The position numbers were made by a program, and so were the translations under genes. From Nitrosopumilus sp. (GTDB lineage: Archaea; Thermoproteota; Nitrososphaeria; Nitrososphaerales; Nitrosopumilaceae), in contig OZ245003.1 of assembly GCA_965223425.1 (NCBI GenBank), forward strand, positions 2,016,001 to 2,080,000: a stretch of 64,000 nucleotides of DNA, written 5' to 3'. A model generated the notes under the pieces. The model made no database searches. It was not told the DNA's origin and was given only the letters and a program-made list of their open reading frames with translations. This document shows, piece by piece, positions 22,370 to 52,680 of the stretch (position 1 is the first letter of the stretch; every line of letters starts with the position of its first letter).

Positions 22370-22544
22370 AGACTTTATGCATAATTGAATCATAAAAATT
22401 TTTCCGAAAGATTTAGATCCATTTTGATCGCCGCAACAGGTAATGGAATCTTCAGAACAGACTATACGCAGGCTGCAAAGGGAGCTCAAACAAAAGGACA
22501 CAGCAATCAGGCAAAAGGACACAGCAATCAGGCAAAAGGACACA

Positions 22545-23686
22545 TAGTAAGTACATAAAAAACCTGAACCATTTTGACAATTATTTTTGGCCAAAAGATC
22601 CAAGACAGGCCATACCGCACACACTGCATGTACAAACAAAAAAAGAGACAGGTTGCAAGGGGGGCAAAATTTCTGCCAAACACCAGCGTTGCAGACCTCA
22701 AAAGGGCATACAAAAAAGAGACCGATCCCAGAAGGCGCGACAGGCTGCTTGCGTACATGCAGCGCAAGGACGGCGTGCCGCTAGACAGGATTGGAAGGAT
22801 GCTGGGAAGGCCCAAGTCCACCATATCTGCATGGCTCAACCGCGCACAGGACGAGGGAATACGCGCAAGGTTCGAGCGCAGCGGCAGGGGACGAAAGCAC
22901 CTGATAGGCGGGCCGCAGGCAAGACAGCTTGCAGCAGACCTGGATGCGGGGCCAGAATCATGCGGCTTTGAGAGCAGCCTGTGGGATTCCAACCTGGTAA
23001 GGCTGCACATCAAGAGAAAGTTCGGCGTGCAGTACAGCAAGGCAGGCGCGCTGCAGCTGGTCAGGGAGATGGGCTTTTCGTGGAGCAAGGCGCGTCCAAA
23101 AAACCCAAGATCAGCCTCAAAAAGAAAGCAAAAAGAGTTTCAGGAGCGGGCAAAAAAACTCGTTGCAGAAAAGTCGGCGCAGGGATACGCCGTACTGGCC
23201 GGCGATGCATCCTCGATTCAAAAGGCATCAAACAGGCCCGGCTACGGGTGGAGAAGGCGCGGCAAGCGCGCCACATCCCCCTCTGTTTTGTCACGCGAAA
23301 GAAGATACATCTTTGGAGCCTTGGCGGCAAACGCATTTTACTTTATGTTTTATGAAAAGTCAAACAGCGACAGCTTTTGCAACTTTTTGGAACGGGTTCA
23401 CAAAAGATTCGGCAAGGTGCTGCTGTTTGTAGACAATGCGTCATATCACAAATCCAAAAAGGTAAAGGAGTTTCTGGAAAGATACAACGGCGAGATAGTT
23501 CTGGAGTACCTGCTGCCGTACACGCCGGAGCTTAATCCCATTGAGATGCAGTGGAGGGTGATAAAACGGGTACTGTCTGCAAAAGTGTTTGGCACGCTAG
23601 ATGAGATGGAGCAGTCAGTACGCAAGCTGTTTGCCAGAAAGGAGATCCTGCCTGTGAAAATGTTCAATTATTTAATGTGCTAACTA
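22545..23686 (+). mobile_element. IS630-family element nested in ISL2-like copy 1
   Basis: Imperfect TIRs TAGTAAGTACATAAAA / TAGTTAGCACATTAAA; flanked by CA on both sides. Confidence 0.9.
22574..23683 (+). CDS. IS630 transposase
   Basis: HTH region, GDAS, VDNASYH, LLPYTPELNPIEMQW motifs; open frame. Confidence 0.93.
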   Translation: MTIIFGQKIQDRPYRTHCMYKQKKRQVARGAKFLPNTSVADLKRAYKKETDPRRRDRLLAYMQRKDGVPLDRIGRMLGRPKSTISAWLNRAQDEGIRARFERSGRGRKHLIGGPQARQLAADLDAGPESCGFESSLWDSNLVRLHIKRKFGVQYSKAGALQLVREMGFSWSKARPKNPRSASKRKQKEFQERAKKLVAEKSAQGYAVLAGDASSIQKASNRPGYGWRRRGKRATSPSVLSRERRYIFGALAANAFYFMFYEKSNSDSFCNFLERVHKRFGKVLLFVDNASYHKSKKVKEFLERYNGEIVLEYLLPYTPELNPIEMQWRVIKRVLSAKVFGTLDEMEQSVRKLFARKEILPVKMFNYLMC

Positions 23687-25039
23687 CAGCAATCAAGCAG
23701 AACAACAGAGCAATCAAGCAGAACAACAGAGCAATCAAGCAGAACAACAGAGCAATCAAGCAAAAGGACGCAGCAATCAGCAGGCGCGAGAAGACGATTG
23801 GCCTGCTGCACGAGCAGCAGCTGCTGCGCGAGGACAGCCTGTGGGCCGTTACAGATGCAGGCCGCCCTGATACGGACACGTCGCTGCTGCACATCAGGGA
23901 GGTGATCCACGGCATACTGCACAACAGCGCAAAGCTTGCGGGAATTACCTCGTATGACCTTGACCAGTTTGACTACATCTACAATGACTTTGTGGTAGAG
24001 TCAAAGAGGCACAACAAAGACGCGCCGCTCTTTTCAGAGGACGAAACACCGGATCCCGGAAACCGCTGCCTGCTTGACCGCAGGTCCGTCCTGCTGCTTG
24101 CGCTGTTCCGCAAGCGCTCAAACGTGACGCAGGATGCCCTGGGAGTGCTGTTTGATGTGGATCAGTCCACCGTGTGCAGGTACCTCAAGTTCGCAGATTC
24201 CGTGCTGGCAGGGATCCTGCCTACTGCAGACAGGATGACCCGTCTGGTAAAAAAGGCCGAGACATCAGAGCAGCTAGAGCAGCTAATGCCGGACAGAACC
24301 ATCATAATTGACGGCACCGAGGTGGTGCCAAGGCAGCGTCCGCAGGACAAGGATAAAAGAAAAAACACGTACTCTGACAAAAAGAAGCGCTTTACGATTA
24401 ACACCACCATAACAACAAACAGGGCAGGCCTGATACTTGCAGCAGGCAGGTCCTTTGAGGGCGGGACGCACGACCTTACCATGATAAGAGAGGATCCGAC
24501 AGACTGGCAGGTGGTCTAAATCCATGTACAAAAAAGACACTCCGGAAAAGGACAGGATACGGGTGCTTGTAGACAAGGGGTACCGGGGATGCCAATCACT
24601 ACACGGGAATGGCACTTGAGATGCCGGAAAAAAAGAGGCCGCGGACGGAGCTGACGCAGCAGCAAAAGGACTCCAACAAAAGGATCAGCGCCAAGAGGGT
24701 AAAGGTGGAGCACGCCATCGGAAGAATAAAGCAGTGGGCGAGGATGACAGACCCGTACGACGGCACGGTAGAGGGGTTTCGCGAGGAGCTGGCTGTGTGT
24801 ACCGGCCTTGCGAACTTTCAACTGCTGTGGGATGCAAAGAAAAAGCGGCCGTCACTTGGTTATTGACGGCACAGCACAGGGTGCATGAGGCACTGCAAGA
24901 GTGCGCACGGATTTCTAATTTCTGCGAATTTACAATGATCTTTTGCATCAAAATTAAATAATTTCCTGGACTGGCTTTGTGTGTCTTGGTAATGTATGCT
25001 GCAGAAAAAATTTGACGGGTCAATTATGCATAAAGTCTA

Positions 25040-26719: not shown

Positions 26720-27240
26720 ACCATATGTGAATACAGAGAAAAGGAAATCAGACAGCATAAGAGATGAACCTAATTCCAGGATTCGCAGTCTGTCACCTCC
26801 AAAGAAACAGATTAGGGGCAAATTAAGCAACAGCATGTATGTGGGCATTGACCTGCACAAGAAACCTCTTCAAGTAGCAATAATGGACAATGACGGAAAG
26901 GTATTACAAAACAGCAATTGACAACACTCACCAGACAATCAAGAAACATTTTGCAAGCATACCGCCTTATGCCAGCATAGCCATGAATCCTCATCTGTCT
27001 GGTTGATACATGTCGATTTCTGACAGATACGCTTGGATACAAAAACCCTGTCAAACCCATACCTGACAAAGGCAATAGCTGCATCCAAGAAGAAGACAGA
27101 CAAGGTTGATGCCAAGATCCTTACAGCTCTGCTGAGGATGGATCCGTGGAGCGAGCTCCTGCCAGATCACAGTACTGTTGCCAAGTTCATGCAGAAGATT
27201 CCAACTGCATGGCTTTGACATGGATGCAATGCATATGAAC
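26720..27240 (+). pseudogene. Degraded IS110/IS1111 element fused to an IS5-like fragment
   Basis: Left end ACCATATGTGA as at 30250; MYVGIDLHKK, KKTDKVDA fragments; then LPDHSTVAKF. Confidence 0.8.
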
Positions 27241-27370: not shown

Positions 27371-28360
27371 CTAAGTGTCTGGGCTGAAATATTTCCCTGC
27401 ATTGTATTCTTCTGCACACATTTCAAAAAGACGCAGGTATGACTTTTCATTATATTGCGAGTTTACAGTATTTAGATAATCAGTAATTTCTCTGTTCCTC
27501 TCTATGATGTTATTGAACAAATCCTTATGTGGCAGCATGTCAGATTTTGTGCAGTTGCATTGCTGGCAGGCCAATGTACAGTTGTACGGATCAGTTGAAA
27601 AAACATAGTTGAATGGTATGACATGATCCACATGTGGTCGCTGAAATTTTTGCTCACAATAAAAACATCTAGAGTCTTGCTGTTGATTCATCCAAAGCTG
27701 TATCTCCGCTTTCAAAGAAATCCTACTCTTTAGTTCATTGTCTATCTTGTTTGCAATTTGAGGAGTCATACGATTTAATTTTTCAAGATATTTTGCAAGC
27801 GAGCTGTTTATTCCTTTTTTTAAAAGTATCTTATGCGTATGCAGAAATTCAATAACATCTTCATCTAATGCTATTATTTTTGAATCGGTTTTTTTATAAA
27901 ATCCTTTCATATCTGTAAGCAGATGTACTAAAACCTCTGGCTTGATACTCTTAGTAATTACCTTTGCTCGAAATTGCTCCATTTTATCTGATGATAGTTC
28001 ATCTATGGTGGGTGGTTTTTTTTGAGGATCATGAATGCTTTTTATCAATCTGGTTATGTTTGCATCCTGCGGATCCTGGGACTGTCTGAGACGAAAACTA
28101 TACTCCATATCCCAATAATATTTTGCAAATCGAACAGCAACAAAATTTAGATCCACAAAAACTTTCCCGTCTTTGCGTTCAAGCCATTGATTGCCTACCA
28201 ATTTTTGTGCAGTTCTAGAATCATACAGATCTCCAATATCCAAAATGGCCCGTAAGAATACGGGTTTATACGTGCTGGCCATTCTTCCTTCCTTACTGAA
28301 GAATCGATTGAACATTTGTAGATAGTCTTTGGACATTATAATCAAACATGGATCGTACAA
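27371..28360 (-). CDS. HNH endonuclease with N-terminal TYK-motif domain (putative restriction nuclease)
   Basis: CFYC...HVDHVIP...NCTLACQQCN..K; ASTYKPVFL. Confidence 0.85.
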   Translation of the reverse strand: MYDPCLIIMSKDYLQMFNRFFSKEGRMASTYKPVFLRAILDIGDLYDSRTAQKLVGNQWLERKDGKVFVDLNFVAVRFAKYYWDMEYSFRLRQSQDPQDANITRLIKSIHDPQKKPPTIDELSSDKMEQFRAKVITKSIKPEVLVHLLTDMKGFYKKTDSKIIALDEDVIEFLHTHKILLKKGINSSLAKYLEKLNRMTPQIANKIDNELKSRISLKAEIQLWMNQQQDSRCFYCEQKFQRPHVDHVIPFNYVFSTDPYNCTLACQQCNCTKSDMLPHKDLFNNIIERNREITDYLNTVNSQYNEKSYLRLFEMCAEEYNAGKYFSPDT

Positions 28361-28609: not shown

Positions 28610-30256
28610 ATAATTCAATAAGACAAAAATAGTTCAATGTCTAACTTTTTTATTTTATAATATGATAGAATCTGATGATTTGAAAATATTTGATAATCAG
28701 GCCCCCTTGATAATAGACTTTATGCATAATTGAATCATAAAAAATTTTTCCGAAAGATTTAGATCCATTTTGATCGCCGCAACAGGTAATGGAATCTTCA
28801 GAACAGACTATACGCAGGCTGCAAAGGGAGCTCAAACAAAAGGACACAGCAATCAAGCAAAAGGACACAGCAATCAAGCAAAAGGACACAGCAATCAAGC
28901 AAAAGGACACAGCAATCAAGCAGAACAACAGAGCAATCAAGCAGAACAACAGAGCAATCAAGCAGAACAACAGAGCAATCAAGCAAAAGGACGCAGCAAT
29001 CAGCAGGCGCGAGAAGACGATTGGCCTGCTGCGCGAGCAGCTGCTGCTGCGCGAGGACAGCCTGTGGGCCGTTACAGATGCAGGCCGCTCTGATACGGAC
29101 ACGTCGCTGCTGCACAGCAGGGAGGTGATCCACGGCATACTGCACAACAGCGCAAAGCTTGCGGGAATTACCTCGTATGACCTTGACCAGTTTGACTACA
29201 TCTGCAACGACTTTGTGGTAGAGTCAAAGAGGCACAACAAAGACGCGCCGCTCTTTTCAGAGGACGAAACACCGGATCCCGGAAACCGCTGCCTGCCTGG
29301 CCGCAGGTCCGTCCTGCTGCTTGCGCTGTTCCGCAGGCGCTCAAACGTGACGCAGGATGCCCTGGGTGTGCTGTTTGATGTTGACCAGTCCACCGTGTGC
29401 AGGTACCTCAAGTTTGCAGATTCCGTGCTGGCAAAGATTCTGCCTACTGCAGACAGGATGGCCCGTCTGGTAAAAAGGGCCGAGACATCAGGGCAGCTAG
29501 AGCAGCTAATGCCGGACAGAACCATCATAATTGACGGCACCGAGGCGGTGCCAAGGCAGCGTCCGCAGGACAAGGATAAAAGAAAAAACACGTACTCTGG
29601 CAAAAAGAAGCGCTTTACGATTAACACCACCATAACAACAAACAGGGCAGGCCTGATACTTGCAGCAGGCAGGTCCTTTGAGGGCGGGACGCACGACCTT
29701 ACCATGATAAGAGAGGATCCGATAGACTGGCAGGTGGTCTAAATCCATGTACAAAAAGGACACGCCCGAAAAGGACAGGATACGGGTACTTGCAGACAAG
29801 GGGTACCAGGGATGCCAATCACTACACGGGAATAGCACTTGAGATGCCGGAAAAAAAGAGGCCGCGGACGGAGCTGACGCAGCAGCAAAAGGACTCGAAC
29901 AAAAGGATCAGCGCCAAGAGGGTAAAGGCGGGGCACGCCATCGGAAGAATAAAGCAGTGGGCGAGGATGACAGACCCGTATGACGGCACGGTAGAGGAGT
30001 TTCACGAGGAGCTGGCTGTGTGTACCGGCCTTGCAAACTTTCAACTGCTGTGGGATGCAAAGAAAAAGCGGCCGTCACTTGGTTATTGACGGCACAGCAC
30101 AGGGTGCATGAGGCACTGCAAGAGTGCGCACGGATTTCTAATTTCTGCGAATTTACAATGATCTTTTGCATCAAAATTAAATAATTTCCTGGACTGGCTT
30201 TGTGTGTCTTGGTAGTGTATGCTGCAGAAAAAATTTGACGGGTCAATTAACCATAT

Positions 30257-31345
30257 GTGAAGGCTCGGAGAAAAGGAATTTTAGATGACACTGGCATCAA
30301 GTCCTTTAAAAAGAAAAAAACAAAGAAACAGATTACCCATGGTTCTGACAAGATCATGTATGTTGGACTAGACGTACACAAGGAGACGATTCAAGTTGCA
30401 GTACTGGATGGCGGCGGGACACTGCAGTCCAACATGAAGATAAAGAACAATCATGCGGAGATCAGGAAAACATTTGCCATGATCCCAAGGGACTCAAAAT
30501 ACGTGCTGGAATCATCATCTGTCTGGTACGGCCTATACCGGTTTCTCACAGATACGCTGGGATTAAATGTAATCGTATCCAATCCGTTTAGCACCAAGGT
30601 AATTGCAACGTCGCTCAAAAAAACAGACAAGGTGGACGCGCAGGCGCTGGCAAATCTATTGAGAGGGGGCTACATTGCACAGTGCCACGTGCCCGACAAT
30701 GACATAGTAGAGCTAAGACACCTTGCAAGACACAGAAACAAACTGGTCAAGACAAGAACAGTCATGAAGAATTCCATACATGGGATACTCTTGCAAAACG
30801 GAATCAAGACAAAATCCGGCGGATTCGGATCCGGCCACGTAAGGGAATTGAGAAAACTGAGGAACTATCGCATAGATTCGTTCCTTGATTCCATAGCGTT
30901 TCTAGACGGGCAGATCTACAAAATGGATGTAAAAACCCGCCGGATAGTCAAAAGGGATCAGAACATCAGTCTGCTGACCACCGTTCCTGGAATAGGGTAT
31001 TATTCTGCGCTTGCAATATATTCGGAGATTGGCAATATCGAAAGATTTTCAGACTCACACAAACTGTGTGCATACGCGGGCATTGTTCCGTCCGTGAGAA
31101 ACTCTGCTGAGACGGTACACCACGGCAGGATAACAAAGAGGGGAAGCCGTATGCTGCGATGGATAGCAGTGGAGGCAATCCAGACCCATACAAGACACGC
31201 GCCTGACAGCGACATTACAAGATTCTACAACCGTCTTGCAAAAAAGAGAGGAAGATCAAAGGCAAAGGTTGCAGCGGCATCAAAGCTGATACGTGTAATA
31301 TATTGGATGCTAAAGGAGAAAAAAGAGTATGTTGCCCAAAAATAA
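30257..31345 (+). CDS. IS110-family DEDD recombinase
   Basis: GLDVH, VLES, KTDKVDA, VPGIG, AYAGIVPSVRNS motifs. Confidence 0.95.
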   Translation: MKARRKGILDDTGIKSFKKKKTKKQITHGSDKIMYVGLDVHKETIQVAVLDGGGTLQSNMKIKNNHAEIRKTFAMIPRDSKYVLESSSVWYGLYRFLTDTLGLNVIVSNPFSTKVIATSLKKTDKVDAQALANLLRGGYIAQCHVPDNDIVELRHLARHRNKLVKTRTVMKNSIHGILLQNGIKTKSGGFGSGHVRELRKLRNYRIDSFLDSIAFLDGQIYKMDVKTRRIVKRDQNISLLTTVPGIGYYSALAIYSEIGNIERFSDSHKLCAYAGIVPSVRNSAETVHHGRITKRGSRMLRWIAVEAIQTHTRHAPDSDITRFYNRLAKKRGRSKAKVAAASKLIRVIYWMLKEKKEYVAQK

Positions 31346-31349
31346 TTTA

Positions 31350-31485
31350 TCACGGTTAGAGTCTGTCTGCGTTTTATGCGTTGAGGTTACACCTCGGGCA
31401 ATTAACTGCGGTTCAATCTAACAAATGGATGAAGAATGGCACTGGGAGTAAGATCCCGAATGGATACTTGTCCGCTCATCTTTTG
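31350..31485 (+). ncRNA. Putative bridge/seek RNA
   Basis: Two stem-capped loops with words matching target (TTTATGCGT, CAATTA) and donor (ATGGATA). Confidence 0.7.
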
Positions 31486-31577
31486 GAATTTGGATCAACC
31501 CTAACGTGAGCCATTCAACACTGTGACAGTTTGCAAGGAATGTTTATAAAGAATTCACATGGATATGCATAAAGTCT

Positions 31578-31829
31578 AGTACACTCTTTAAAAATATTCA
31601 GGAAATAATCGACAAGTTAAAAAAAGATATCATGGTAGGCAAACGAATTAAATTCAAAACTATTCCCAAATACTACAAAAAGAGACATGGGATTGACAAT
31701 GCGTTTCATGTATATTTGCCAAAAGGCATGAGACTAGTCTATTCTATTACTATTTACAATGGTGAAAAGACTGCATTTCTAATGGAATTAGCGGATCATC
31801 ATGCTTATGAGAAAAGATTCAATTATTGA
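31578..31829 (+). pseudogene. RelE/ParE-like toxin, 3' part
   Basis: IPKYYKKRHGIDNAFHVYLPKGMRLVYSI...DHHAYEKRFNY; frame open to the IS end. Confidence 0.6.
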
Positions 31830-31888
31830 TACATAAATGTACATACATATAAATATCATTTGTCTGCATAAGCAGTTGGGAATCACGC

Positions 31889-32185
31889 ATGGCTAAATCA
31901 ATGACTGTTTTGGATTATATTTTGGAGAAAAGTAAAAAATACAATCCTACACTGAGAAGTTTTATTCAGGTCGAAAAATTAGTATTTGAGACTAAAGAAT
32001 TTGAGACCAAACGGGAACTATACAATCTATTGCCCAAAGGAATGCAGTATCCGTCATTTAACTTTATTTTAGATGTTTTGGAAAAACAAAACAAAATCGT
32101 ATTTGATAAAGACGGTTCTTTTTTCTGGATTGGCAATGCAAGCCAAAAGCTAGAAAAGAGTATTAAAAACGCAAAGGAATACTAG
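31889..32185 (+). CDS. Winged-helix protein, putative antitoxin
   Basis: PTL..VEK..KRELYNLLPKGMQY..ILDVLE..NKI. Confidence 0.6.
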   Translation: MAKSMTVLDYILEKSKKYNPTLRSFIQVEKLVFETKEFETKRELYNLLPKGMQYPSFNFILDVLEKQNKIVFDKDGSFFWIGNASQKLEKSIKNAKEY

Positions 32186-32339
32186 ATTCTTTAAAAGAGC
32201 AAAATGAGCAAAGAAAAGTTATCTGGCTTTCAAGATTTGGGTTGATCAAGCCCAACGAGTAATTGTACTCAATTCCGCATGAACCTGAGTTCAATGGTTC
32301 ACGTTATTTTTAAGTAGGGCGCAAAACGGAGATCAACGC

Positions 32340-33122
32340 ATGGTATCAGGCAACCAAATCAGACTCAACCGAATTCTCAAAAAAGGGAAAATGCTTTGCA
32401 TTCCAATGGACCACGGCATTTCAAATGGGCCCATCGAGGGTCTTGAAAATCCCGCCGATACAATCTACAAATGTGAGGGACATGGCCTCACCAGTGTAAT
32501 TATCAACAAAGGGATTCTCAAAACACTGCCTAAACCAACTAGGGTTGGCATTTTAGTTCATTTTTCAAGTAGTACTGCATTATCATTATCACCTAATCGC
32601 AAGATGTTGACTGGAACCGTAAAAGAAGCTGCGGCGATGGGAGCAGATGGCGTTTCATTACACATCAACGTTGGAGGTAAAGAAGAACCAGAGATGTTAG
32701 AGCAGCTTGGCATGACTGCAGATCAATGCCACAAGTGGGGAATGCCGCTTTTGGCGATGATGTATCCGAGGGGGGAGAACATAAAAGATCCTCATGATCC
32801 TGAGATTGTCGGACATGTCGCAAGGATTGGTGCAGAGTGTGGTGCAGATATTGTTAAAACATTATACACTGGCGATGTAGATTCCTTTGCAAGAATTGTA
32901 AAGAGCACACCAGTTCCAATTGTCATTGCCGGCGGACCTAAAGCAAAAACAGATTTAGATATTCTTCAAATGACTGAAGATGCTATGACTGCAGGAGCTA
33001 AAGGTGTCACATACGGCAGAAACATCTTTGCACACAAAAATCCTGAAAAAATGGTAGAGGCACTAGCTGAAATAATTTTCAGAAATAAAACTGCAAAGGA
33101 AGCATTGAAGAAAATTGAGTAA
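32340..33122 (+). CDS. aroA': 2-amino-3,7-dideoxy-D-threo-hept-6-ulosonate synthase (DhnA-type aldolase)
   Basis: PMDHG, MMYPRG, GADIVKT, GRNIF; first gene of archaeal shikimate operon. Confidence 0.9.
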   Translation: MVSGNQIRLNRILKKGKMLCIPMDHGISNGPIEGLENPADTIYKCEGHGLTSVIINKGILKTLPKPTRVGILVHFSSSTALSLSPNRKMLTGTVKEAAAMGADGVSLHINVGGKEEPEMLEQLGMTADQCHKWGMPLLAMMYPRGENIKDPHDPEIVGHVARIGAECGADIVKTLYTGDVDSFARIVKSTPVPIVIAGGPKAKTDLDILQMTEDAMTAGAKGVTYGRNIFAHKNPEKMVEALAEIIFRNKTAKEALKKIE

Positions 33123-45274: not shown

Positions 45275-46652
45275 CAGTCACCCAGAACAGCATATGCAGT
45301 TAAACTCATGTAAGCCTTGGGTTCTCCCATACGAAATCACCCCTTATCCTACTGCGGACCATTCTCAGTGTGCTTTGCTGAATCAGGATGTTTCTGATTT
45401 GTCTTGCATCTTCTTATACTTTCTTTGCGTCAACTCATGATTCTGTGTGCGGTATTCCTCCATGTTTGTTAGCATGTGCCAGATTATCTCAAGCATCATC
45501 TGCCTTGCAGCTGCTATTCTTGCCTTTTGTTTTCTTCTTCTCTTTGCGATTCTTGAATAAAATGATTCCATCCTTGGATCAAATCGTATCGTGGTGTTTG
45601 CAGCCTCCACCTGCATTGCGCAGCCATGCAGAACCACGTTTTGTTATTCCGCCGCCTCCTTTTTGCGTCTCTCCGCTGTCCCTGTGCGATGGTGCAAGTC
45701 CCGCATATGAGACGAGTTTCTCTGCTGTTGCAAATCTGTTAATGTCAACTATCTCGGATATTATTGTCAGTGCCGTGACATAGCTTATTCCAGGCATTGT
45801 CATGACTAGTCTTGCCCTTTCATCCTCGTTGCTAATTGCAGCAATCTTTGTCTCAAATGTGTCAATCTGTTTTTGATTCATCTCAATGTTTTCAAGATAT
45901 GCGTCCATTGCCATCCTGTCAACTTCTGTCAGACTGATTTCATGCAGCCATCTGATTCCCTTCTGTGAGAATGTCTTTATTGTCGGTTGGGTGTAGTCGT
46001 ATTTTGCAAGTATTGCATAAATCATGTTTTTGTGTTTTGAGACACTGTGTACGCGATTCAGTCTTGTTCTTACCAGACTGCGCAGGTCCCGATAGTATTT
46101 TTCTGGTACAAATGACTCGTACACCATGTCAGATCTTAGCAGGTCTGCCAACACGTCTGAATCGAGCTTGTCGTTTTTGAGTTTTGCCTGTGCTATTATC
46201 TTGGTCTTTGCAGGGTGTGCAAGAACAGTATCAATGCCGTTATCCTCCAGTGTGTCATGCAGTCTAATCCAGTAGTTGGCAGTTGATTCGCACACTGCTT
46301 GCATGTCTTTGCCGTATGTCTTTTTGACGTGTCTGATAAAACCCGTTATTCCACGTGTGGTGTTCTCAAAGCTTGACTGTTCCAGCTTTTTTCTGGTATC
46401 TTTTTTTACTGTTGCAACGCACCTGTTTTTGTGAACGTCAATTCCTATGCTGATCATATTATCACCTCCTTTCTGATCAAATTGCCTGATTCTGCGGAAT
46501 GCTCCCATTCACCATCATCTGTGTGGTATTTTGTTTTCCGCTCACTTTGAGTTAGTCTGTGAAACGCCCTTGTACATGGCAGTAACCCTTCAACTCTCAG
46601 GCCCAACAGTAACGATACATCACAGGATATAGAAAAGATTTCGTATAACGTC
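45275..46652 (-). mobile_element. IS110-family element type B, transposase 46457-45383 with one frameshift near 45605
   Basis: IGIDVH, CEST, KNDKLDS, YAGLAPSHRDSG; TC at both junctions (45273-74, 46651-52). Confidence 0.88.
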
Positions 46653-47367: not shown

Positions 47368-48774
47368 TAGCTTGAACACATGATAACCACCTCGTCGTAG
47401 ATGTAGTGATGAATCGACCCCTGTATGCATATGGGCCTTGCGCCCTTGAGCTTGAATGGGGCAGTCCGAGCTGCTGTGTGACTGGGCCTTGCGCCCTGAT
47501 AGGTGTATGCAGCTTCCGATCCGTCAAAGATCCGAAAGGAGGTGATAGAAAGGATGAGCAAAGGAACAATCAGCATAGGAATAGACATTGGAAAGAGAAA
47601 ATGTGACGTATGCGTCATGGACTGGAAGGGAAAGGTTTTGCATACTGGCCAGTATCAAAACACCGTCTCAGATGCAGACAGATTCGCAGAACAGACGGCA
47701 CTCAGGTATTCTGCCAGAAGATGTCAGGCAGCATGCGAGACGACGGGCAACATGTGGAACATCACATACGGCGCCTTTGAGAGACATGGAATCGACATAA
47801 AGCTTGCCAACACCTACAAGATGGCAATAATTGCAAAGACGGGAAAGAAGACAGACAAGATTGACGCACAAAAGATAGCAAGCGTATTGAGGATGGATTC
47901 AATACCAGAGTGTTATGTGCCGTCAGCTGACACAAGAGGAGTCCGGGCCATGGTCAGACAGAGGATCAGGACCGTACAGGACAGGACACGCGTGATAAAC
48001 CGCGTCCACAGCCTGCTTGACAGATACGATGTGAAAATCGATGCCTCTGAGATGTATGCCATAAAGGCCGTAGAACAGATGGAGTCTGCAAGCCTGGGAT
48101 CCGTACATGACGAAATAGTACCGAGTCAGTGTGCCCGGCAGATAAGGAGCCTTACCGAGGAGATAAGACACATGGATGAACACCTGGAAAAGGAGGCATC
48201 GCTAAACGAGGATGCAAAACTTCTTGCCAGCATGACTGGCATGGGAATCTACTCTGCACTGCTGCTTGCCGTCAAGATAGCCGACATTGTCAGATTCGAG
48301 ACCCCAAAGAATCTCGTCTCATGGGCAGGCCTGTGTCCGGCGATACGCCAGTCAGGCGACAAAATCTACATGGGCAGAATCAAAAAGCTTGACACCAACA
48401 GTCTGGTCAACTGGGTCATGTGCGAGGCTGCAAACACGGCGGTAATTCATGATACTAGAATGAAGGCAGTTTACGAGTCTTCCAAGAGAAGACATGCAGG
48501 CAAGCATGCACTTGCCATAGTGACTGTCGCCAACAAGATGATAACCATAGCGTGGCACATACTCAAGACCAGGACACCATACGAGTCCCGAAACGAGGGA
48601 CTGTACAAACGCAAGCTTGCCAAGATGGAAAAGGCACGCCAGAGGTGATTGGTATGTGTCATCCCACCAAATTATCTCTCCAGCGTTAGCTATAAATCTT
48701 GTACCGTACAAGTAGGCACGGATCGGAAATACAACTGGGATGCGTTGCCGCAACACGTCCGGTGGTTAACATAG
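47368..48774 (+). mobile_element. IS110-family element type C
   Basis: TAG at both junctions (47368-70, 48772-74); long structured left end. Confidence 0.8.
47554..48648 (+). CDS. IS110-family DEDD recombinase
   Basis: GIDIG, CETT, KTDKIDA, WAGLCPAIRQSG. Confidence 0.92.
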   Translation: MSKGTISIGIDIGKRKCDVCVMDWKGKVLHTGQYQNTVSDADRFAEQTALRYSARRCQAACETTGNMWNITYGAFERHGIDIKLANTYKMAIIAKTGKKTDKIDAQKIASVLRMDSIPECYVPSADTRGVRAMVRQRIRTVQDRTRVINRVHSLLDRYDVKIDASEMYAIKAVEQMESASLGSVHDEIVPSQCARQIRSLTEEIRHMDEHLEKEASLNEDAKLLASMTGMGIYSALLLAVKIADIVRFETPKNLVSWAGLCPAIRQSGDKIYMGRIKKLDTNSLVNWVMCEAANTAVIHDTRMKAVYESSKRRHAGKHALAIVTVANKMITIAWHILKTRTPYESRNEGLYKRKLAKMEKARQR

Positions 48775-51364: not shown

Positions 51365-52680
51365 TATCCATGTGAATTCTTTATAAACATTCCTTGCAAA
51401 CTGTCACAGTGTTGAATGGCTCACGCTGGGGTTGATCCAAATTCCAAAAGATGAGCGGACAAGTATCCATTCGGGATCTTACTCCCAGTGCCATTCTTCA
51501 TCCATTTGTTAGATTGAACCGCAGTTAATTGCCCGAGGTGTAACCTCAACGCATAAAACGCAGACAGACTCTAACCGTAATAAATTATTTTTGGGCAACA
51601 TACTCTTTTTTCTCCTTTAGCATCCAATATATTACACGTATCAGCTTTGATGCCGCTGCAACCTTTGCCTTTGATCTTCCTCTCTTTTTTGCAAGACGGT
51701 TGCAGAATCTTGTAATGTCGCTGTCAGGCGCGTGTCTTGTATGGGTCTGGATTGCCTCCACTGCTATCCATCGCAGCATACGGCTTCCCCTCTTTGTTAT
51801 CCTGCCGTGGTGTACCGTCTCAGCAGAGTTTCTCACGGACGGAACAATGCCCGCGTATGCACACAGTTTGTGCGAGTCTGAAAATCTTTTGACATTGCCA
51901 ATCTCCGAATATATTGCAAGCGCAGAATAATACCCTATTCCAGGAACGGTGGTCAGCAGACTGATGTTCTGATCCCTTTTGACTATCCGGCGGGTTTTTA
52001 CATCCATTTTGTAGATCTGCCCGTCTAGAAACGCTATGGAATCAAGGAACGAATCTATGCGATAGTTCCTCAGTTTTCTCAATTCCCTTACGTGGCCGGA
52101 TCCGAATCCGCCGGATTTTGTCTTGATTCCGTTTTGCAAGAGTATCCCATGTATGGAATTCTTCATGACTGTTCTTGTCTTGACCAGTTTGTTTCTGTGT
52201 CTTGCAAGGTGTCTTAGCTCTACTATGTCATTGTCGGGCACGTGGCACTGTGCAATGTAGCCCCCTCTCAATAGATTTGCCAGCGCCTGCGCGTCCACCT
52301 TGTCTGTTTTTTTGAGCGACGTTGCAATTACCTTGGTGCTAAACGGATTGGATACGATTACATTTAATCCCAGCGTATCTGTGAGAAACCGGTATAGGCC
52401 GTACCAGACAGATGATGATTCCAGCACGTATTTTGAGTCCCTTGGGATCATGGCAAATGTTTTCCTGATCTCCGCATGATTGTTCTTTATCTTCATGTTG
52501 GACTGCAGTGTCCCGCCGCCATCCAGTACTGCAACTTGAATCGTCTCCTTGTGCACGTCTAGTCCAACATACATGATCTTGTCAGAACCACGGGTAATCT
52601 GTTTCTTTGTTTTTTTCTTTTTAAAGGACTTGATGCCAGTGTCATCTAAAATTCCTTTTCTCCGAGCCTTCACATATGGT
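51365..52680 (-). mobile_element. IS110 (IS1111-type) type A copy 2
   Basis: Near-identical inverted copy of 30250-31565; TA core. Confidence 0.92.
51585..52673 (-). CDS. IS110-family DEDD recombinase
   Basis: Differs from 30257-31345 at only a few residues. Confidence 0.95.
   Translation of the reverse strand: MKARRKGILDDTGIKSFKKKKTKKQITRGSDKIMYVGLDVHKETIQVAVLDGGGTLQSNMKIKNNHAEIRKTFAMIPRDSKYVLESSSVWYGLYRFLTDTLGLNVIVSNPFSTKVIATSLKKTDKVDAQALANLLRGGYIAQCHVPDNDIVELRHLARHRNKLVKTRTVMKNSIHGILLQNGIKTKSGGFGSGHVRELRKLRNYRIDSFLDSIAFLDGQIYKMDVKTRRIVKRDQNISLLTTVPGIGYYSALAIYSEIGNVKRFSDSHKLCAYAGIVPSVRNSAETVHHGRITKRGSRMLRWIAVEAIQTHTRHAPDSDITRFCNRLAKKRGRSKAKVAAASKLIRVIYWMLKEKKEYVAQK

Follow-up and report, generated by a model that had tools for sequence, protein, structure and literature searches.

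RNA-guided recombination by insertion sequences (IS) of the IS110/IS1111 group was established in 2024 with bacterial elements. Durrant et al. (PMC11208160) predict bridge RNAs in 93% of the ISfinder IS1111 elements, Siddiquee et al. (PMC11187229) state that IS1111 elements of both bacteria and archaea use such RNAs, and 662 archaeal recombinase homologues are catalogued by Vaysset et al. The locus considered here lies in a 64,000-nucleotide stretch of a Nitrosopumilus sp. genome (GenBank assembly GCA_965223425.1, contig OZ245003.1, positions 2,016,001 to 2,080,000), which is hereafter termed the window. Our analysis indicates that positions 31355-31485 of the window very probably encode the bridge (seek) RNA of an active IS1111-type element of the IS110 family in an ammonia-oxidizing archaeon. 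The ends of this element, its target, the covarying fold of the RNA and the co-variation of its guides with the flanks and ends can all be read directly from the comparisons described below.

The element, its ends and its insertion site

The element spans 30250-31565 on the forward strand (1316 bp with one TA core counted) and is the first of three copies, approximately 99% identical to each other, that were recovered by a DNA search of the 2.64-Mb genome (Table 1). All three are inserted at CAATTA^YGCATAAAGTCT, within the terminal inverted repeat of another insertion sequence of about 1.55 kb, which encodes a DDE_Tnp_4 transposase (hereafter the host IS). The ends were fixed independently by aligning the three copies and their flanks with about 20 uninterrupted host-IS ends. 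The sequence common to the three copies runs from ACCATATGTG to CACATGGATA, the empty site reads ...GACGGGTCAATTA|TGCATAAAGTCT, and the filled site reads CAATTA|ACCATATGTG...CACATGGATA|TGCATAAAGTCT with TA as the core. The TA is present at both junctions and only once in the empty site, with no longer target duplication, as is typical of the IS110 family. The point of insertion lies 12 bp from the tip of the host inverted repeat (CAAT-TA-element-TA-TGCATAAAGTCT); the left tip of the interrupted host IS, AGACTTTATGCATAATTGA, is found at 28715 and its last 12 bp at 31566-31577. Copies 2 and 3 occupy the same position in the other inverted repeat of the host IS, and since their upstream flank is the reverse complement of the 5' end of the host open reading frame (ORF), the orientation of the element with respect to the repeat is fixed. 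The right flank of copy 3 reads TA|CGCATAAAG. In addition to the three filled sites and one right-end remnant, the genome contains 34 empty sites, 31 of the TG type and 3 of the CG type after the core; tallied by type of end, there are 17 left-type sites, 17 right-type sites with GGGT and one with AGGT. The remnant (C1:66866-66916) is a 51-bp right end, 100% identical and still joined to TGCATAAAG.

The recombinase matches both PF01548 and PF02371 (E-values of 3.8e-24 and 3.2e-22, each above the curated cut-off) and, among solved structures, the ISCro4 and IS621 recombinases. Its residues D6, E52, D91, D94 and S250, numbered from ATG 30356, align with D11, E60, D102, D105 and S241 of IS621 (PDB chain numbering being offset by 2), the catalytic residues named by Hiraizumi et al. 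(PMC11208158). The gene is intact in all three copies, and the genome encodes an archaeal AmoA (392 bits) together with an archaeal small-subunit (SSU) rRNA, which identifies the host as an ammonia-oxidizing archaeon; the intact recombinase and the archaeal host had both been proposed in an initial annotation made from the sequence alone. From the stop codon at 31345 to the right end at 31565 there are 220 nt of non-coding sequence, as compared with at most 106 nt upstream of the gene, or none if translation starts at GTG 30257; this longer downstream non-coding region is characteristic of IS1111 elements. The same holds for the subterminal inverted repeats set in from the tips, for which Durrant et al. 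(PMC11208160) give a range of 7-17 bp. Here the repeats are imperfect (CCAT(AT)GTGAA at 30251-61 and TTCACATGG at 31554-62) and are conserved throughout the family. The motif of the recombinase is G-I-V-P-S-V-R-N-S-A, ending in SA, and the IS1111 motif given by Siddiquee et al. (PMC11187229) is GL-P----S(T)G, with SG, TG and occasionally TA.

Three observations concern the junctions themselves. One host-IS right end (locus L018, C1:31590-31742) reads CAATTAACCATAAAGTCT and not CAATTATGCATAAAGTCT, the two bases after the core being those of the left end of the element (AC for TG); this end could have been left behind by an excision in which the crossover took place in the shared CATA instead of TA. 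The right junctions of otherwise identical copies vary by 1-2 bases exactly at the core, as in copy 2 (C1:323136 region, L002), L063 versus L094, and L103/L104 versus L067 (for example, CATGGAT-GCATAAAG versus CATGGATATGCATAAAG), with the left junctions being constant; target variation and slippage at strand exchange are the candidate explanations. Lastly, Logan contigs from four DNA runs, compared with 29900-31900, end at the repeat borders (30249, 31565/31578). A contig joint from 30248 to 31547, with 10 other letters between, was considered as an excision product and rejected, its source being the right-end remnant described above; no circle junction was reported in these contigs, which cannot reveal rare forms.

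Table 1. Features of the element, its RNA and its surroundings (window positions, except where prefixed C1)
Feature	Position	Strand	Basis or remark
Element, copy 1	30250..31565	+	three-copy alignment and empty-site comparison
Element, copy 2	C1:323132-324481	-	genome DNA search
Element, copy 3	51365..52680	-	in left inverted repeat of another host-IS copy
Right flank of copy 3, CGCATAAAGTCT	51364-51353		genome search and alignment
Host DDE_Tnp_4 / HTH_Tnp_4 IS, body and inner right inverted repeat	28715..30249	+	Pfam
Left target GGGTCAAT and left core TA	30240..30249 (core 30248-49)	+	empty-site comparison, three-copy alignment
Left subterminal inverted repeat CCATATGTGAA	30251..30261	+	holds GTG 30257, which opens the recombinase frame
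DEDD recombinase ORF	30257..31345	+	362 aa from GTG; conserved core from ATG 30356
Target-binding domain	31355..31422	+	RNAalifold and pair counts
Outer stem GTTAGA/TCTAAC of target domain	31355-60 / 31417-22	+	
Inner 4-5 bp stem CUGC(G)/(U)GCGG of target domain	31367-71 / 31407-11	+	closes loop 1
Loop-1 5' strand UUUUAUGCGU, right-target guide	31372..31381	+	complementarity and own-versus-other test
Hairpin 1, GAGGT/TAC/ACCTC	31383-87 / TAC / 31391-95	+	
Loop-1 3' strand CAAUUA+AC	31399..31406	+	same sense as left target, core and first 2 nt of left end
Donor-binding domain	31427..31480	+	consensus fold and pair counts
Donor-domain 5' strand GGAUG(A)	31427-32		partner UGUCC 31469-73 (consensus) or UCAUC 31476-80 (distal)
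5' donor guide AUGG	31436..31439	+	pairs with CCAT of left end (30251-54)
Hairpin 2	31443-58; GGGA/TCCC 31444-47 / 31454-57	+	
3' donor guide AUGGAUA, then C	31460..31467	+	equals right end and core
U-run after distal stem	31481..31484	+	T-rich in most homologues
TATA-like box TTTATAAA in right end	31543..31550	+	putative function
Right subterminal repeat TTCACATGG and right core TA	31554..31565 (core 31564-65)	+	
Right target TGCATAAAGTCT, outer 12 bp of host inverted repeat	31566..31577	+	empty-site comparison

Structure and guides of the probable RNA

The 5' strand of loop 1 in the target-binding domain, UUUUAUGCGU, pairs with the top strand of A+YGCATAAAG, that is, the second core base and the right target, with 9 Watson-Crick pairs and one G.U pair at CG-type sites, and 8 and 2, respectively, at TG-type sites. 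Within it, TTTATGCGT (31373-81) is the exact reverse complement of A+CGCATAAA at the right junction of copy 3, and it pairs with the commoner TGCATAAA via a G.T wobble. The 3' strand of this loop pairs with the bottom strand, its last two bases constituting a handshake-like extension into the left end, and the left match extends as CAATTAAC, which agrees with the left junction at 10 of 11 positions. In the donor-binding domain the C that follows AUGGAUA is the first base of the CG-type right targets. With this C, the RNA is tuned on both loops to the rarer CG-type site. The U-run that follows the distal stem is, judging from the sequence, a possible 3' end of the RNA.

To place this architecture in a comparative setting, the recombinase was searched against 401 genomes of the same class, in 56 of which homologues were found at E<=1e-40, the best non-self match being 62% identical; this tally includes one genome flagged as unpublished (G283), from which no locus was used. 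A further 62 loci were fetched and fell into 41 DNA families, of which 32 distinct elements (41-62% protein identity) could be aligned. The nine families outside the alignment include L072, L112, L034, L077 and L082, in which long hairpin insertions shift the 5' part beyond the fixed window of the alignment, L080, which has lost the 5' guide, L088, which has no anchor, and L089 and L084_423, whose anchors are spurious. The multi-copy families share the structure of the ends (left T|A-AC(C/T)ATATGTG, right CACAT(G/A)GATA, core TA).

In the 32 elements, RNAalifold predicts an outer stem GGUUAGA/UCUAAC, an inner stem CYGC/GCRG, hairpin 1, a helix GGAUG/UGUCC and hairpin 2, with compensatory changes in 18 of the 24 predicted pairs. 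When the alignment is trimmed, 95.4% of the cells pair, as compared with 85.1% after shuffling and 33-44% with a slid partner, and 15 of 21 pairs have changed on both sides; none of 500 shuffles reaches any of these measures. Many of the G.U pairs, including an invariant U.G, fit the forward strand only, which points to an RNA of the same sense as the recombinase gene. Variation in the alignment coincides precisely with the loop strands. The stem closing the donor loop is less sharply defined: its proximal and distal partners each give helices of 4-9 bp in nearly all 32 sequences, and permutation is uninformative (6489 and 2628 of 20000) because the 5' strand is nearly invariant. In L106, L107, L081 and L083 a U>C change in the 5' strand is accompanied, by eye, by A>G in the distal partner, and L076 retains the distal helix only; the distal stem thus has a measure of compensatory support. 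The two pairings may be alternatives.

A covariance model of the RNA has 12 matches in the genome, 11 of them directly 3' of IS110-type ORFs or ORF fragments, and in a phylum-wide sample its matches are confined to 4 of 151 genomes, each of them from the same family as the window. A partial match of 43.5 bits at C1:2302004-2302085 (-) has no recombinase match listed beside it and may be a solo RNA fragment.

Evidence for guide function comes from comparing each loop strand with the flanks of every element, for the 28 elements with both junctions mapped (of the 32 aligned, L081, L083, L084 and L087 lack a junction call by motif). The right-target guide, namely the 5' strand of loop 1, has Watson-Crick runs averaging 6.0 against its own flank and 3.3 against those of others; for the left-target guide, namely the 3' strand, the match to the flank scores 7.1 and 4.2, respectively. 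Each of the observed sums is reached by 0 of 20000 permutations, counts that overstate independence to the extent that the compared elements are related. Individual cases illustrate the same relationship. L070, from another genome, has a related repeat, GTCAATA^TGCATAAGGTCT, as its target and guides altered to match. L095 and L073, which carry TGCATAAC, have their insertion point shifted onward by six bases in a similar repeat (...TTATGCATA^CGGTCT). The genome of the window also contains a 50%-identical paralogue, with five RNA-model matches, at sites of the form ...TTTTGTA^YGAGTTCAC. Its guides are rc-ACGAGTTCAT and TTGTAAT and, as in the element of the window, the C variant of the site is matched perfectly and the T variant through a wobble.

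The donor loop follows the ends of the element in a comparable manner. In 25 of 28 elements the 7-mer that follows hairpin 2 is identical to the right end of the element itself (ATGGATA in 12, ATAGATA in 11, ATGGGTA and ATGGATT in one each). The 5' donor word ATGG occurs only with a CCAT left end (15 elements) and ATAG only with CTAT (5 elements), and all four combinations of CCAT or CTAT left ends with ATGG or ATAG right ends are present with matching guides. In loop 1, the two bases that follow the core (AC in this element) repeat the beginning of the left end, with agreement at the first base in 28/28 and at the second in 22/28; in L106, and by eye in L034 and L112, they have changed together with the left ends. 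For loop 2, identity between the base that follows the core and the first right-target base is found in 13 of 25 elements, with 6.9 expected from permutation and 120 of 20000 permutations reaching the observed value.

On the whole, these results bear out the initial annotation, which had recognized in this region the target-loop and donor-loop architecture of a bridge RNA and had expected the loop words to covary with the target sites. The stems, hairpins and words that it listed, among them GATGA (31428-32), TCATC (31476-80), ATGGATA (31460-31466) and CAATTA (31399-31404), are each found where it placed them. The three-copy alignment and the empty sites agree with its view of the loop-1 words as the two strands of the inverted repeat running into the TA core, just as the mapped ends and the relatives agree with ATGGATA being the right end plus core, and the match of TTTATGCGT to the copy-3 target is exact. 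Its drawing of the loops was incomplete. In loop 1 it overlooked the inner stem and part of the left guide; in loop 2 it missed the 5' donor guide, and its closing stem GATGA/TCATC is one of the two competing pairings. Of the checks it named, covariation succeeded, while folding of the single sequence yielded a stability no better than that of shuffled sequences.

Weight of the evidence, alternatives and a putative junction promoter

Apart from the relatedness of the compared elements, several observations weigh against the identification of a bridge RNA. At the level of the single locus, the minimum-free-energy fold recovers stem 1 and hairpin 1 and is no more stable than shuffles (z of -0.7 and -0.5), and the guide words are mildly over-represented in the 64 kb: TTTATGCGT occurs 3 times versus 0.46 expected (two guide copies and the copy-3 target), CAATTAAC 6 times versus 3.9, and ATGGATAC 6 times versus 1.6. 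This one locus is thus insufficient as proof, and the weight falls on the comparative evidence. Within the latter, the single-copy elements L071, L073 and L074 match their flanks poorly, in that their right guides form Watson-Crick runs of 3. At just 4 nt the 5' donor guide is short, and it mismatches in 7/28 elements (ATGA in five, AAGG in one, and ACGG with CCAT in one), an eighth element with another 5' word being L086 (ACGG with a CTAT left end). The handshake-like signal of the donor loop is modest, and none is seen at the second position in the 25 elements; the closing stem of this loop is ambiguous between the UGUCC and UCAUC partners. An Rfam scan of 29000-33000 with E-values up to 10 gave no matching family, its two chance hits (E 6-8) lying outside the region, and the covariance model finds no match beside ISHvo10, the nearest named relative; homology to the characterized bridge RNAs is hence one of architecture, not of sequence. 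RNA runs of the organism were looked for as transcript evidence, and none is listed.

The alternative that fares best, which we nevertheless regard as improbable, is that only the target domain guides, as a short seekRNA, with the ends being recognized by the protein and the donor words reflecting shared ancestry or a protein-binding motif. In ISEc11 a seekRNA of 70-100 nt with target matches is reported to be sufficient for transposition, the role of the long form being left open in that account (PMC11187229), and both the shortness and frequent mismatches of the 5' donor guide and the long subterminal repeats of IS1111 elements, which could be protein sites, are consistent with such a division of labor. 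The behavior of the donor loop across the relatives argues against it. The donor 7-mer tracks the element's own right end in nearly all cases, the 5' word tracks the left end independently so that all four combinations are seen, the donor-domain hairpin and stem show conservation together with compensatory changes, and a protein site would leave unexplained why the base next to the core tends to match the right target.

Considerably less probable is the possibility that the region is a structured 3' untranslated region or terminator of the recombinase mRNA, or an antisense regulator, with the flank matches due to chance or to leftovers of targets. The unremarkable z-scores, the U-run after the second domain and the modest significance of short words in one window speak for this view. 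Against it stand guides that differ by element and match their own unrelated flanks, and that occupy the unpaired strands of the loops in a fold that covaries, in 28 elements with many different targets. That the words act as DNA, namely as internal transposase-binding sites mimicking the ends, would account for their identity with the DNA of ends and flanks and for the lack of an observed transcript, but is the least probable view of all, as the compensatory changes and the G.U pairs, which fit one strand only, indicate that an RNA fold is under selection, and the arrangement of one guide as reverse complement and the other in the same sense is the two-strand RNA pairing pattern of the family.

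We therefore retain the bridge RNA as the best account of the locus. Such an RNA, which we assume to be co-transcribed with the recombinase, would be transcribed probably as the 3' part of its mRNA, bound by the protein and used by it in catalysis; no internal archaeal promoter upstream of the RNA is evident by eye. It would consist of two domains, each an internal loop around a hairpin. The 5' strand of the target domain would pair with the top strand of the right half-site (the second core base and YGCATAAAG), and the 3' strand with the bottom strand of the left half and core (CAAT-TA), with an extension of two bases matching the left end. Of the donor-domain strands, the 3' one would correspond to the right end and core (ATGGA-TA) and the 5' one would pair with the CCAT of the left end. 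The DEDD/Ser recombinase and the RNA might then bring the junction of right and left ends in a circular form to the inverted repeat of the DDE insertion sequence, with strand exchange at the shared TA. The expected outcome is an insertion specific in both position and orientation, 12 bp from the tip of the repeat, in either repeat.

The ends of the element carry further features that might bear on its expression in the circular form. In an analysis of ends and frames of 34 elements (without L072, whose right end was mis-called), the start of a TTAWW motif is at a distance of precisely 22 nt from the right end in 26, a count that rises to 29 when distances of 20-23 nt are allowed. GTG 30257, which is base 8 of the left end and lies inside the left subterminal repeat, opens the recombinase frame; between it and the conserved Met this frame contains no stop in 33/34 elements, as compared with 3/34 for each of the other frames, and a (R/K)-x-(S/L)-D-(G/S/D) motif recurs in the resulting N-terminal extension. 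When the ends are joined, the center of the TATA-like box is 26.5 nt upstream of GTG 30257, the usual distance from TATA box to start in archaea. These sequence features raise the tentative possibility, which we rate somewhat below an even chance, of an archaeal junction promoter, in which box and GTG would be juxtaposed, about 26-27 nt apart, only in the excised circle. A leaderless mRNA for the recombinase, with the bridge RNA in its 3' part, would then be made from the circle after excision only, constituting a self-limiting switch placed over at least 28 differently programmed guide RNAs. Junction promoters of bacterial elements are described by Siddiquee et al. (PMC11187229) and Hiraizumi et al. 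(PMC11208158); a literature search on junction promoters or TATA boxes in circular intermediates of archaeal insertion sequences found nothing relevant.

Between the donor domain and the TATA-like box lies a conserved block (31492-31509; CYCTAGCGnnnGCYATGC in relatives), for which the alignment of relatives yields no consensus structure. Within the block of this element, GCCATTC (31503-09) has its complement in GAATGGC, the 5' strand of the donor loop.

The surroundings of the element are an IS graveyard. The transposase of the interrupted host IS (28789-30089) begins with tandem heptad repeats, KQKDTAI four times followed by KQNNRAI three times, and is split into two ORFs (28789-29742 and 29790-30089), for which a frameshift site and decay are the candidate explanations. 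A pair of host-IS tips at 22370-25038 are 2669 bp apart, approximately 1.1 kb beyond the size of the ~1.55-kb copies, and this copy probably carries an insertion. Further genes or fragments of IS110-family recombinases are found at 26835-27152, 45513-46448 (-) and 47575-48585 (+), with 28-41% identity and in-frame stops in some. Between IS fragments, a 329-aa ORF with a C-terminal HNH endonuclease domain is encoded at 27371-28360 (-).

Comparison with known systems

The bacterial IS1111 elements with seekRNAs or bridge RNAs described in PMC11187229 and PMC11208160, namely ISEc11, ISPa11 and ISKpn4, resemble this element in having a DEDD recombinase followed by a long 3' non-coding region, along with subterminal repeats. 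In the seekRNAs of PMC11187229 the segment pairing with the top strand likewise lies 5' of that pairing with the bottom strand, the two overlapping at the insertion point. The size classes are also comparable, plausibly ~68 nt here for an RNA of the target domain and ~130 nt for one spanning the two domains, against the 70-100 and 145-170 nt given for IS1111 in the same source. The differences are an archaeal host, a recombinase at most 31% identical to the plasmid-borne bacterial IS110-family proteins listed, an RNA with neither an Rfam family nor detectable sequence similarity, a G-x-x-P-x-x-x-x-S-A motif in place of S/T-G, and a putative TATA-like box in place of a -35/-10 junction promoter.

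With IS621, as described in PMC11208160 and PMC11208158, the RNA shares two pseudo-symmetric internal loops in the order stem, guide, stem-loop, guide, a shared core dinucleotide, and one guide directed at the bottom strand of the left half with the other directed at the top strand of the right half and core. The one or two "handshake guide" bases beyond the core that match the partner DNA in PMC11208158 also have counterparts here. The two systems differ in that the RNA of this element lies 3' of the gene, in the right end, with its polarity inverted relative to the geometry of recombination; when the element is read on the other strand, the order of left guide, hairpin, and right guide with core and handshake is that of IS621 (PMC11208158). 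They also differ in the core (TA here, CT in IS621), in the long subterminal repeats found here, and in a protein match of 37 bits.

The archaeal relative with the nearest named recombinase is the ISHvo10 family of haloarchaea (NC_013966.1; 37% identity over 99% of the query), which Siddiquee et al. (PMC11187229) place near the IS1111 cluster, with long non-coding regions on both sides. As regards the target, the host element here is a ~1.55-kb archaeal DDE_Tnp_4 insertion sequence. An earlier paper reportedly describes site- and orientation-specific insertion at a fixed position in the inverted repeat of another transposon, in either repeat. A literature search pairing "bridge RNA" with "Nitrososphaer*" found no paper, and the ISfinder predictions in Supplementary Table 5 of Durrant et al. 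may already list archaeal elements, which would lower the novelty of this one.

The locus is a well-documented new archaeal case of a known RNA-guided recombination, with a mechanism that is not new and of a kind that is unsurprising. Its interest lies in being an archaeal system of recent activity, present in three intact copies beside 34 unoccupied targets, in which the registers of target, donor, core and guide are directly readable. Some 30 naturally reprogrammed relatives, including pairs that hit different registers of one inverted repeat, should be useful for deriving the guide rules of IS1111 elements. Ammonia-oxidizing archaea are not known to have genetic tools, and the element is a candidate native tool for site-specific insertion in these organisms. 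By displaying the form of an archaeal IS110 RNA, it also bears on the proposal that the archaeal Nop5/box C/D ribonucleoproteins descend from IS110-like ribonucleoproteins.

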